This document shows, piece after piece, positions 54,301 to 57,300 of a DNA stretch of 64,000 bases. Position numbers: made by a program. This DNA comes from Trypanosoma brucei. Taxonomy: Eukaryota. The number at the start of each line of letters is the position of its first letter. Position 1 is the first letter of the stretch. The stretch spans positions 1,728,001 through 1,792,000 of the forward strand of contig CP000070.1 of assembly GCA_000002445.1 (NCBI GenBank). The letters are read 5' to 3'.

Positions 54301-57300
54301 CTAAAAGAAAAAATCGGTGGCAAAAATAAAGGCACTAAGCTGAATGAGATCGGCACAGCTGCTGAGCTAGAAGCGGTCCTGGCAGCCGTGGACATAAAAC
54401 TTATAGAAACACGATCAAAATTGATAAAACAACTTAACGAAGAAAAGCAGAAAAAGGGGGGAGATGATACCACAAAAACAAGCGAAACAGATGAAACTTG
54501 CCAAGCAAAAGGAACAGGAGATAAATGCACTTCCCCATGCAAGGAGGTCGAAGAAGGCGGCAAAAAGAAGTGCACATTGGATAAGGAAGCTAAACAAACA
54601 GCAGAAGGAGCAGCAAAACAAGAAGGGAAAGATGGAAAAACTGTAGATTGCAGTAAACTTTACACACAAGAGAAATGTGAAAAAGCCAATGAAGGCCAAG
54701 CCACAAAAGTTTGTGGATGGAAGGGAGAAAATACTGATGGATCTGACAAATCCGGTTATAAATGCCGAAACGGTAGTTTTCTAGTAAAAAAACAATTCGC
54801 CCTCAGCGTGGTTTCTGCTGCATTTGTGGGCTTCATAGAATTTAAGAGCTCGAAGGATAATACGAATTTTCGCTTAATTTTTTGAAATCTATGAAAAGTG
54901 CTATTTTGAGAGAATTTGCTAATTTTTTCTAAAATTTGATACAACTTACGATTTTTTGATTAAAGTGTGAAAACTCTAGTTAAATCTGCATAATTATGGC
55001 CTATGTATGTAACGTAGAACCTTGATAGGGCATGAAAAATTAGCGCTACTCTAATTTGGTGTATTTTGTTAATTTTGTTTATGTTATTAATATTAGAAGT
55101 AATTTGGGGTTATAATAATAATAATAATGATGATAGTGATAATAATAGGAGAGTGTTGTGAGTGTGTATATACGAATATTATAATAATAATAGTAAAAAT
55201 AATAGTAATGATAATAATAATGATAATAATGATAATGATAGGAGAGTGCTGTGAGTGTGTATATACTAAAATAATAGGAGTGGTGTTGTTGAAAACCAAA
55301 CGGAAGGATAAAGTAAAGCTCTTAAAACAATGGTGAGTGTGCAAAGAGTATTATTGAAGAAACGCAGGAAGACAAAGAGGGGGAAATAGATGATTAAGAA
55401 TTTAAAGCACAAACATGACGAGGAACACAATTATACTGAAAGAGATGCTTGAAGGATCAATGAAAAAGAGAAAGGCGGAATGCATTGCACTAGCCATATG
55501 GAGGCGCTACAGCATATGCAGGAAGAACGGCTGAAGGAATAAATAAGAAAATAAAATAAGGAAGGAAACAACGGAGAGAACATCAGCATAGGACAGCAAA
55601 AAAAGTTCATAAGGAGAAGCAAAGATTTCATGTATTGTTAAAAAAAATAGATACTGCTGCTAAAATGATGCGGCAAAAAGACTAACAGTAGTTTATAAAG
55701 CAATGGTGATTAAAGTCTCATTGTCAAACTGTTCGGTAAGGGGAGTTATCACAAAGCAACCTTATATATTCTTAGTACAAATCAACTTAGCAGCTCAACT
55801 AGCTGCTGAAATTCCAACAGCAATGCATAGAGGAAAATGTAAATGAAAGGAGTAGCAATACACATGTAGTGTGATGTCAAAGCTATGACTGAAGCTATAT
55901 TCAAAAACAAAATTAGTAGATGCTGCACTAAAAGATACAACATATAAACAGCTGTGCGCACTGGAAGAGGAACCGGAAAAGACACCTTCTGTTGTAGCGG
56001 CAGCGTTAGAAAAACAGAAAACGTCACCGACGACATCCACAGCCACCGGCACAAAAACTTAACATTAAGTAAACTTAGTTTCAGAACACGAAGGCTGACG
56101 GTAGCACCAACATTAGGTCTAATATAGGTTAAAAAAGCAAAGAACGTTCGAAAAAAAAAAAGCAGAAAACAACCCGCCGCGGGAAATAAAGGCTCTACGA
56201 TAAAACAGGGGTCTTTTGGTCCCTGTGCAACAAGTGGCTGACATTCTAAGTCTCCAGCCTCATCAGTGAGTGGTGACCAAGTAGCGGACCCTCGAACATC
56301 AACGCGAAGAAAAAATGCGCACCTAAAGGTTTGAAAGGAAATATGCACACCTTTCCAACAGCATCTCCAAATCAAGGTGTAGCATAAATTGAAGACGAGG
56401 TCTACAACAAGCAAACGAAAACAACCGCAATTTAAAATTTTTTTTGAATTTTCTTCCCGCCTTCGTGGGAGTTTCCCCCCACTGGCGCGGCCATCAGCCA
56501 TCACCGTAGAGCCCTGAGATGCTATCGGTCTGGCAACTGTGGTAGAGTCTCCCTTTTTTATTCAGCCTAACACACCCTCTATAATTTTTTGTTGTAGCTC
56601 CGCATTTGAACGGAATACAGCAAATGGGGCGAGAAGCCTCCCACCCTGGACTCTCCCAAAGATGTCAATTAGCAATCCTTTTGTTTTGATTTTTGTTATT
56701 CGTTTATTATTCTCTCCCCCTTTTTATGTTTTTGATGCTTGTTGACTGCATACCCTCTCTGTCTCTGAGGGTGTCTGGACTATTCCTGCGTCCGGTGCTT
56801 TTCCTGCTGGCTCCACACTCGGCAATAAGGGGGGAAGTTGCAGAAGGGAGAGTGGGTTGTATGACTGTTACATTAGGTGAGGACTTCACCTGCGGCCGGC
56901 TCCGTTCAACCGCAATGAGAAATTGCGCCAGCCTTTTAGAAAAACATACATCTTGCACACACAACCACCCTCTACCGCAAACCTGACACGTAATTCCTTC
57001 AAACCGTGACAGCTCATCAAGTGCAGCGACGTTTCTTCGCAGTCGCCGCGTTGGCTGGTAACAGCGCGCTCTACCTTCATACCGTGCATCTTCTTTTGAT
57101 GTAGGGTGAGGCCAGTTTTGCTAGCACACTGCCTTCCGCATGTCGGGCACACCAACATGGATCTGTTTGTATGCGGGGAATCAGTGGCACACAATTTTGT
57201 GCTTTTGCTGCATTTAAGCTCGACTCCCTCACCTTTGTGGAAAGCCTTACAGTGTCGGATGAGGGAGCCCCTGCAACTGAGCACTTTTTGGCACACACCA

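Follow-up and report, generated by a model that had tools for sequence, protein, structure and literature searches.

A probable decayed sixth cassette and a defective ingi at the right edge of a VSG island in the core of Trypanosoma brucei chromosome 7

We analyzed a window of 64,000 nucleotides from chromosome 7 of T. b. brucei TREU927 (all positions refer to this window) and conclude that the segment 55105-56440 is probably a decayed cassette, the sixth and final one of a small VSG island that lies in a convergent strand-switch region of the chromosome core. On this reading the 70-bp repeat, the VSG stub behind it and the ingi that follows would all be non-functional relics. The array ends at this ingi, given that no VSG sequence is found past it and that the next genes are core genes of the opposite strand. 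The ingi itself is a dead, rearranged copy and not an intact insertion.

Setting of the VSG island

The left part of the window (1-35089) is occupied by core genes, including those for Dus, Kae1/TsaD and a DEX1-like protein; the last core gene on the plus strand (34295-35089) encodes 264 aa. Downstream of this gene is the left arm, X, of an inverted repeat (35426-36130, plus strand), and its right arm, X' (62905-63609, minus strand), is located downstream of the core gene at the right of the island, which is convergent, paralogous and encoded on the opposite strand. The two arms, of 705 nt and 98% identity, bracket an island of five VSG genes, so that the VSG cassettes are enclosed by core, non-subtelomeric genes and the flanking genes are convergent paralogues. 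The VSG at 53242-54885 is an exact match to XP_846274.1 of TREU927, annotated as 'VSG, atypical'. Rfam and tRNA scans of the window gave no matches, and a VSG 3' 16-mer motif was uninformative within this island.

Internal VSG 'islands' imported by segmental duplication have been described, most of them common to brucei and gambiense, and ingi-mediated rearrangements were reported alongside this import (Jackson et al. 2010, PMC2854126). A cluster at cSSR 7.7 of chromosome 7, consisting of VSG pseudogenes plus an atypical VSG, is reported to be silenced by Pol II termination that depends on H3.V and base J (Reynolds et al. 2016, Fig 5, PMC4721609). Judging from the description and the approximate coordinates rather than from gene identifiers, the island analyzed here is very probably this published cluster.

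The locus was compared with those of T. b. gambiense DAL972 and of a separately assembled T. b. equiperdum (GCA_003543875.1), which were reached through cluster members of the window proteins. The whole arrangement, including the ingi pieces present at both edges, is colinear in the two subspecies with 96-99% identity (97-99% over 55206-64000 and 30860-44000), the gambiense assembly being a not fully independent witness of structure because it was ordered against TREU927. The orthologous content of the island is thus kept between subspecies, and the arrangement arose before T. b. brucei, gambiense and equiperdum separated. A strain comparison had been proposed in the preliminary description of this DNA; the same arrangement without the ingi, which would have spoken against the role given there to the element, was seen in neither subspecies.

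The last cassette

The 70-bp repeat block that opens the sixth cassette (55105-55290, plus strand) had been recognized correctly as genuine. It consists of two units 93 nt apart together with TAA/TGA-rich tracts, and the GT-rich 25-nt core GGAGAGTGTTGTGAGTGTGTATATA is present at 55148-55172 without mismatches and at 55241-55265 with one; across the window this core has four matches, with none expected. Both units belong to repeat family D3, 55119-55183 with 85% and 55212-55276 with 82% identity to the reference unit at 52193-52257. Like other 70-bp repeats the block combines the core with surrounding triplet tracts of the TRR type and tandem units of ~70-90 nt, and it lies upstream of VSG sequence on the same strand, though it is a remnant and not a gene that starts 584-632 nt downstream. 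At this site a single unit is present in T. b. gambiense and T. b. equiperdum, versus two in TREU927.

Between the repeat and the VSG remnant there is an A-rich spacer (55291-55873, plus strand; A 0.44, GC 0.36) with the composition of the other five spacers, and the stretch 55036-55378 shares 74% identity with 52125-52444 of cassette 5. The ORF-poor sequence of ~1.1 kb that had been noticed after the repeat measures 1.15 kb; no ORF in it is usable, and the longest on the plus strand of 55291-56437 have 47 and 57 aa. In contrast, the statement that in all other cassettes the VSG starts 1.2-1.6 kb after its repeat was too narrow, since the measured distances are 0.84-1.64 kb.

The repeat is not wholly an orphan, as had been claimed: a remnant of an A-type VSG N-terminal domain is located at 55874-56056 on the plus strand, within the interval (55300-56440) in which a VSG 5' remnant was to be sought. 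Its profile-supported part, 55922-56056 (AALKDTTYKQLCALEEEPEKTPSVVAAALEKQKT...), matches positions 27-71 of a custom HMM with 14.6 bits and an E value of 3.4e-5. This HMM was made from 153 A-type VSGs and represents only this type, given that a search for B-type VSG homologues gave three proteins. None of 3000 dinucleotide-shuffled frames attained 14.6 bits, and the 47 other frames all gave E values of at least 1.6. The best eight of 20 blastx matches all place 55895-56059 on VSG residues 11-73. Like A-type N-terminal domains, the matched stretch carries the first conserved Cys that follows the signal peptide, and it is 100% identical in gambiense and equiperdum. Upstream, an ATG at 55874 with an in-frame stop after four codons may represent a degenerate start and signal peptide. 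The matched stretch contains stops and is followed by others, and there is no intact VSG ORF with its signal peptide, both complete domains and the GPI signal; the remnant is a pseudogene fragment.

Past the remnant, VSG similarity is absent up to the ingi and beyond it. The 381 nt at 56057-56437 (plus strand) gave no significant VSG profile or blastx match; they may be further decayed VSG sequence, and the C content over 55871-56437 is intermediate (0.22). Nothing significant was obtained by tblastn with the five VSGs of the window against 55291-56460 and 61500-64000. Pfam models found no VSG, RHS, RT or endonuclease match in the stop-masked frames of 55291-56437, a weak negative because the same scan overlooked a clear VSG C-terminal remnant at the left edge of the island. 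Having no usable VSG behind it, the last 70-bp repeat should not be counted as part of a functional donor cassette.

The ingi pieces at the two edges

The minus-strand ingi at the right edge ends, very near the position estimated before (~56440), in a poly(A) tail of eight residues at 56438-56445 (A8 on the minus strand, T8 on the plus strand). This 3' end is canonical (...GGGAAGAAAATTC followed by A8) and aligns with the 3' end of L003, an independent ingi copy. The body of the element (56446-60851, minus strand), 4.4 kb of homologous sequence that begins near canonical position 82 and runs to the 3' end, is 93-95% identical to two T. b. equiperdum copies, L003 and L004. It is a member of the family by descent and is defective: the single long APE/RT/RNase H ORF of a ~5.2-kb element is broken into four or more pieces, and a deletion between 59828 and 59846 has removed ~783 bp with the N-terminal RT motifs.

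The 5' limit had been estimated at ~61650, which is ~0.8 kb off, given that similarity to three other ingi copies ends at ~60851. A 5' end at ~61660, deduced from a Pr77 motif, was likewise ruled out by comparison with real copies. The left ingi piece, L003 and L004 all begin with CCCTGGCGAT... and have an intact Pr77, whereas the canonical Pr77 (CCCTGGCG..., the first 77-79 nt) was not found on the right ingi. A weak and diverged Pr77-like stretch is present at 60879-60912 on the minus strand, near the expected register; its score, 22 of 34 positions, is attained by 1.3% of shuffles when all registers are considered. The sequence that adjoins the 5' side of the element (60852 to ~61750) is GC-rich (0.50-0.63), without recognizable ingi and without blastn, tblastx or Pfam similarity. 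Comparison of 36131-37538, 60852-61800 and 61663-62904 by tblastx and blastn with the window and two other ingi loci showed no homology, an insensitive Pfam scan of the stop-masked frames of 60852-62000 and 36131-37538 gave no VSG, RHS, RT or endonuclease match, and no VSG similarity was found in 60852-62904. The flanks are not contiguous VSG sequence, which counts against a simple full-length insertion.

It has been reported that Tbingi normally makes target-site duplications of 12 bp (PMC3820030), and such a duplication was to be looked for at 56440 and 61650; it is absent at every candidate position. The last 12 nt before the ingi, CGCAATTTAAAA, would be the 3' copy of the target site. No pair of 12-mers links the flanks 56395-56445 and 61640-61730 at 8/12 or better, the best pair at 60852-61010 (9/12) is equalled or beaten in 17% of shuffles, and a window-wide search with both flank 12-mers gave no partner at a meaningful position. 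The independent copy L003 has an 8/12 candidate duplication, counted by eye.

A second ingi piece is found at the left boundary (37539-38744, minus strand), which fits the earlier remark that ingi elements lie at array boundaries. It has an intact Pr77 5' end at 38744 and, after reaching approximately position 1207 of the deleted variant, stops internally, at 37539, against unrelated sequence. Over 1125 bp it is 98% identical to the right ingi, the 783-bp deletion is common to both, and the two pieces show concerted evolution with only three fixed differences. Its 5' end directly adjoins a frameshifted remnant of a VSG C-terminal domain (38745-38953, plus strand; ...EKDCKDWCKWK / ACKDFTNIVNKK), for which blastx gave 70 matches to VSG residues ~415-511 with E values down to 1e-8. 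A VSG-type 3' region comes after this remnant, and then the first 70-bp repeat of the array (39133-39297). The idea that one insertion produced both the 5' flank of the left piece and the 3' flank of the right piece was rejected, because their 12-mers, ATGCATTATATT and TTTTAAATTGCG, mismatch and because the two VSG stubs, which span about residues 1-190 and 415-end, do not abut.

Origin of the edges and relation to known systems

The suggestion that the ingi entered or replaced a VSG cassette, or that the array ends here, held largely on both counts, with the amendment that a VSG remnant survives and that no VSG is found beyond the element. The reading that we consider probable is that the sixth cassette was originally normal, with a 70-bp repeat, an A-rich spacer and a VSG, and that an ingi then entered this VSG in the opposite orientation; the junction at 56437/56438, with its poly(A), still resembles one made by retrotransposition. 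The 5' end of the ingi would afterwards have undergone a DNA rearrangement, either a deletion or an ectopic recombination, which took away the canonical first ~80-95 nt of the element, the target-site duplication and the remaining VSG, and which fused the ingi to non-VSG sequence at what is now the right limit of the island. The left edge would be formed by another piece of this deleted ingi variant, with its intact 5' end against the VSG C-terminal remnant. The anatomy of the locus, the VSG remnant, the lack of a duplication and the conservation are established here; that insertion came first and truncation later, and that the truncation was recombinational, we infer. The target of the ingi may already have been decayed sequence and not an intact VSG, as suggested by the small size of the remnant (~45 residues, 14.6 bits) and the 381 nt without VSG signal that separate it from the element. 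It could also be that the truncated cassette and the ingi were imported already in their present state, or, if the weak Pr77-like match at 60879-60912 is taken into account, that the element has its full length and an unusual 5' end; the absent duplication would then need another cause, for example a target-site deletion at insertion.

A clearly less probable alternative is that ingi homology served to bring the island into the core, the ingi pieces being recombination joints and the sixth cassette having been truncated in the donor. A VSG segment between two direct ingi copies would have moved from a subtelomeric array to the strand-switch region, either as a circle that popped out and re-integrated or through gene conversion or two-ended recombination in which a resident ingi-like element took part. 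Both edges do carry ingi in the same orientation, the left one keeping its 5' end by the 3' part of a VSG and the right one its 3' end by the 5' part, which is the circular permutation expected from such an import. The ~783-bp deletion common to the two pieces and their mutual identity of 98%, versus 93-95% to other copies, point in the same direction, as does the abrupt passage of the right ingi, near position 82, into diverged sequence that contains a weak Pr77-like stretch, as in a hybrid joint with an older resident element; island import by segmental duplication together with ingi-mediated rearrangements has precedent (PMC2854126). Nonetheless, a clean homologous exchange should leave two full-length elements, and here the left piece ends internally (37539) and the right one is without a canonical 5' end; the flank 12-mers of the two pieces differ, and the concerted evolution indicated by the three fixed differences means that the similarity and the common deletion may be secondary. 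A related and more tentative proposal is that the island is a circularly permuted unit whose edges are the halves either of a single VSG cassette interrupted by an ingi or of two cassettes that one ingi joins, with the six cassettes imported by ingi-mediated recombination, for example as an extrachromosomal circle, and the pieces since kept alike by gene conversion.

Other explanations of the right edge are improbable to different degrees. A truly orphan repeat, such as a stray block left by repeat expansion or recombination, with a coincidental VSG-like match, is quite improbable: the Pfam models were silent in 55291-56437, the match is short and of only 14.6 bits, and the 584 nt from the repeat to the putative start are fewer than in the other cassettes, but the profile match is unique among 48 frames and unequalled by the shuffled ones, it lies on the correct strand and in the correct part of a VSG, directly after the signal peptide and with the conserved Cys, many independent VSGs match the same spot in the same register, and the Pfam scan also missed the unambiguous C-terminal remnant at the left. 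Even less credit can be given to a simple, intact 5.2-kb ingi at 56440-61650, with a 12-bp duplication and the VSG resuming on the far side. Some 5.3 kb, near the canonical length, separate the poly(A) from the far end of the GC-rich block (~61750), and the 3' junction is canonical; however, this model is refuted by the lack of ingi homology in 60852-61750, by the size of the recognizable element, 4.4 kb and internally deleted, and by the absence of both a duplication and far-side VSG similarity. Least credible of all is an artefact in which the reference was mis-joined at the repeated ingi, because, although high-copy ingi often causes misassembly, the junctions on both sides are the same in gambiense DAL972 and in the equiperdum assembly, each with its own substitutions and indels.

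Reciprocal partners of the present junctions, that is, CGCAATTTAAAA directly upstream of an ingi Pr77 and AATATAATGCAT directly after an ingi poly(A), would if present indicate an ectopic ingi-ingi exchange, and their absence would favor a deletion. The importance of these results beyond annotation is small; they reveal how one internal VSG island is bounded: each edge carries the stub of a truncated VSG and a piece of dead ingi, the near-identical arms of an inverted repeat lie outside these, and convergent paralogous genes follow. The locus offers one concrete, datable example of retroelements that mark the limits of imported VSG segments, in a state older than the T. brucei subspecies, and if the ingi-mediated import is true, it would be a documented mechanism for seeding VSG islands in chromosome cores.

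Compared with a canonical silent VSG cassette (70-bp repeat, spacer of ~1-1.5 kb, VSG and 3' region), the sixth cassette is alike in its repeat with a conserved core, in its A-rich spacer, partly homologous to that of the neighboring cassette, and in its A-type N-terminal start on the same strand; it differs in that only ~60 VSG codons are recognizable, with stops, and in that the remainder of the gene and the 3' region are missing. The right ingi resembles the Tbingi/RIME non-LTR retrotransposons of the ingi clade in its canonical poly(A) 3' end, its APE, RT and RNase H coding remnants, its identity of 93-95% to other genomic copies and its location at the edge of a VSG array, and departs from them in having no canonical Pr77, a ~783-bp internal deletion, broken ORFs and no 12-bp duplication. 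The truncated last cassette of an internal VSG island is an already known kind of feature, and there is no essential difference from the published internal VSG/ESAG 'islands' (PMC2854126; cSSR 7.7, PMC4721609): these are likewise short runs of VSG genes and pseudogenes with 70-bp repeats, which sit where a polycistronic unit ends, with core genes on both sides, and which are colinear orthologues in T. b. brucei and T. b. gambiense, and the cSSR 7.7 cluster also includes a gene annotated as 'VSG, atypical'. To this picture our analysis adds the VSG stubs at both ends, the pair of ingi pieces with a common deletion, and the X/X' inverted repeat.

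The VSG island in the chromosome core

The VSG at 53242-54885 is an exact match to XP_846274.1, "variant surface glycoprotein (VSG, atypical), putative", of Trypanosoma brucei brucei TREU927 (contig of 2,205,233 bp), and the 90% cluster of this protein includes orthologues from T. b. gambiense DAL972, T. b. equiperdum, Lister 427 and EATRO1125. Plus-strand core genes, e.g. those encoding a dihydrouridine synthase, Kae1/TsaD and a DEX1-like protein, extend across 1-35089 of the window; the locus is a VSG island of the chromosome core, not a subtelomere. Six blocks of 70-bp repeats are found between 39133 and 55290 (39133-39297; 42552-42654, degenerate; 45201-45400, mostly (TAA)52; 48591-48738; 52193-52350; and 55105-55290), together with five VSG genes or pseudogenes, at 40836-42308, 43495-45050 (frameshifted), 46894-48300, 50382-51924 (frameshifted) and the one identical to XP_846274.1. 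In the cassettes other than that of 55105-55290, the distance from repeat to VSG start, previously given as 1.2-1.6 kb, is 0.84-1.64 kb.

Some features of the cassettes were observed in passing. Upstream of the third VSG an almost pure (TAA)52 tract (45237-45392) replaces the normal 70-bp repeat. VSGs 2 and 3 share a direct repeat of 388 nt with 97% identity (44887-45274 and 48277-48664) that spans their C-terminal end and 3' region, even though their N-terminal parts are unrelated, and the ORF of VSG 3 stops just within it; such a repeat resembles the outcome of an earlier 3'-end conversion between adjoining cassettes. In TREU927 and T. b. equiperdum the first VSG is annotated with 490 aa, whereas the annotation of its T. 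b. gambiense orthologue (P0020) gives only 393 aa. Between two core genes lies a perfect (TG)45 microsatellite (30788-30877), and a related CA-rich tract is present at 18938-18977.

The last 70-bp repeat and the VSG remnant behind it

The repeat block at 55105-55290 is real: the 25-nt core of the 70-bp repeat is present at 55148-55172 with no mismatches and at 55241-55265 with one, in two units spaced 93 nt apart, and this core has four matches in the window versus none in shuffles. The spacer that follows (55291-56437) is ORF-poor, as had been described, and its plus-strand ORFs do not exceed 57 aa; in composition (A 0.42, GC 0.39) it is like the five other spacers, and over its first ~150 nt it shares homology with that of cassette 5.

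The preliminary description considered this repeat to be without a downstream VSG, and proposed a search for a VSG 5' remnant; such a remnant exists. Searches of the spacer with the VSGs of the window and with Pfam models gave no match, a weak negative in the case of Pfam, since it also overlooked another obvious remnant. When the spacer was compared by blastx with 150 diverse A-type VSG sequences obtained from a profile search, 20 matches were found, and the best eight all place 55895-56059 on VSG residues ~11-73; in the five control spacers the matches were scattered and all had E > 0.2. An HMM built from 153 N-terminal domains matched frame +1 at 55922-56056 (HMM positions 27-71, 14.6 bits, E 3.4e-5 computed over 48 frames), while all other frames of all spacers and flanks had E >= 1.6, and the maximum among 3000 frames of 1000 dinucleotide-preserving shuffles was 10.2 bits, short of this score. 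The matched peptide, AALKDTTYKQLCALEEEPEKTPSVVAAALEKQKT, is the stretch straight after the signal peptide and includes the first conserved cysteine. The decayed VSG start may be represented by the ATG at 55874, after which a stop follows early; VSG-like sequence was undetectable in 56057-56437. In T. b. gambiense and T. b. equiperdum the sequence of the remnant is unchanged (100% identity).

An antisense ORF of 240 aa (minus strand, GTG start, 55782-56504) overlaps the spacer, the VSG stub and the poly(A) junction of the ingi. A Pfam scan gave no match for it, and it probably arises as a by-product of purine richness in the plus strand, as this makes stop codons scarce on the complementary strand.

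The ingi pieces and the edges of the island

The poly(A) end of a minus-strand ingi was expected near 56440, and a T8 run, the complement of the poly(A) tail, is indeed found at 56438-56445; the 3' terminus, ...GGGAAGAAAATTC(A)8, aligns with the 3' end of an independent ingi copy. The far end, placed earlier at ~61650, is not there. Two T. b. equiperdum ingi copies (L003 and L004), both of which open with the Pr77 hallmark CCCTGGCGATGCCGGCCACC..., were used for comparison, and the right ingi is 93-95% identical to them solely between the poly(A) and ~60851 (roughly canonical position 82). Between 59828 and 59846 it lacks ~783 bp that are present in both copies and carry the N-terminal reverse-transcriptase motifs, and its reading frame is broken into at least four ORFs. 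The GC-rich sequence that continues from 60852 to ~61750, which shows no similarity to ingi by blastn, tblastx or Pfam, probably gave rise to the earlier estimate; the sole trace of Pr77 is an ungapped 22/34 match to its positions 16-49 at 60879-60912, near the expected register. Tbingi usually creates 12-bp target-site duplications (PMC3820030). None was found here: no pair of 12-mers reached 8/12 between 56395-56445 and 61640-61730, the best pair with the right flank 60852-61010 was 9/12, a score equalled or exceeded by 17% of shuffles, and the 12-mer CGCAATTTAAAA of the flank is matched nowhere in the window at a position that would be meaningful. The T. b. equiperdum locus on CM010677.1 that contains one of the reference copies (L004 8897-13263) has extra inverted partial ingi copies right after the main element, and is another example of rearranged, ingi-rich DNA.

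The VSG array ends at the right ingi: blastx detected no VSG beyond it (60852-62904), and in the orthologous loci the next annotated genes are on the minus strand. At the left edge, a second minus-strand ingi piece (37539-38744) has 98% identity with the right ingi over 59727-60851 and shares with it the 783-bp deletion junction; its Pr77 5' end is intact at 38744, whereas the right ingi has no intact Pr77. Directly adjoining this end is a frameshifted VSG C-terminal remnant (38745-38953; 70 blastx matches to VSG residues ~415-511, E down to 1e-8), followed by a VSG-type 3' region and the first 70-bp repeat. The left edge is therefore formed by an ingi 5' end and a VSG 3' stub, and the right edge by a VSG 5' stub and an ingi 3' end, with both ingi pieces in the same orientation. 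GC-rich non-coding blocks lie on the outer sides of the ingi pieces (60852-61750, GC 0.50-0.63; 36131-37538, GC 0.55), and have no similarity to ingi, VSG, Pfam families or each other.

The whole island is bracketed, outside the ingi pieces, by an inverted repeat of 705 nt with 98% identity (35426-36130 and 62905-63609). Each arm is located downstream of one of two convergent genes that are paralogues, so the island sits in a convergent strand-switch region; given that the proteins encoded by these genes are only 32% identical (E 6e-24), the repeat is either homogenised or a separate repeated element. A third, partial copy (268 nt, 97.8%) was observed at 21377-21644 of L001, one of the orthologous loci, downstream of the next gene, ~1.3 kb past the window end.

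In T. b. gambiense DAL972 (FN554970.1) and T. b. equiperdum (CM010678.1), the orthologous loci align colinearly with 55206-64000 (98.1% and 97.2%, respectively) and with 30860-44000 (98.9% and 98.6%). Both ingi pieces, both VSG stubs and all the junctions were found in them, thus the arrangement is older than the split of these subspecies; the comparison with other strains proposed earlier returned the same arrangement, with the ingi pieces included. An assembly artefact is a poorly supported explanation of this arrangement. The sole structural difference near the last repeat is the presence of one unit in these subspecies versus two in TREU927 (window 55184-55276 versus L001/L002 11872-11942). 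Over ~1125 positions of the ingi pieces (37539-38744 and 59727-60851, with their orthologues in L001, L002, L005 and L006), orthologues are further apart between subspecies (19-59 differences) than are the left and right copies of a single genome (23-38), with only three fixed left-right differences. This suggests that the ingi copies undergo gene conversion, or else reflects noise in the T. b. equiperdum assembly; if conversion occurs, the 98% left-right identity is no clock.

History of the right edge and relation to known islands

It had been proposed that the ingi inserted into a VSG cassette or that the array ends here; a VSG stub does precede the ingi and the array does end, but a simple, intact insertion is poorly supported, considering that the element is defective, that it has no target-site duplication and that no VSG follows it. 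The two stubs were also considered as the two sides of a single simple insertion; this was rejected, given that the 12-mers flanking the left and right ingi do not match and that the stubs cover about residues 1-190 (right) and 415 to the end (left). A truly orphan 70-bp repeat is poorly supported in view of the VSG N-terminal remnant downstream of it.

The most economical history is that the sixth cassette would originally have been normal, and that an ingi would have retrotransposed into its VSG, leaving the 3' junction that is still intact; a later rearrangement at the ingi 5' end would have removed the hallmark, the duplication and the remaining VSG, and the rearranged junction would have become, or would already have been, the right boundary of the island. 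The main rival is that ingi homology itself was the vehicle that imported the VSG segment into the strand-switch region. The symmetry of the edges, which resembles a circular permutation, fits this idea; in contrast, the internal truncations of both ingi pieces are not what a clean exchange would leave.

Jackson et al. (2010) described 17 VSG/ESAG "islands" in the core chromosomes, 11 of them with orthologous content in both T. b. brucei and T. b. gambiense; these islands are thought to have been imported via segmental duplication, with ingi/RIME as a main cause of rearrangements (PMC2854126). Reynolds et al. (2016) reported at cSSR 7.7, a convergent strand-switch region of chromosome 7, a cluster of VSG pseudogenes with an atypical VSG, which carries the H3.V and base J marks and becomes derepressed on their loss (PMC4721609). 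Judged by its description and approximate position, the island analyzed here is very probably that cluster. To its description the present analysis adds only details of local interest: the N-terminal VSG stub, the right ingi with its defects and rearrangement, the matching piece at the left edge and the inverted repeat; since the locus matches the published islands, the finding is a correct reading of a locus of an ordinary, already catalogued kind.
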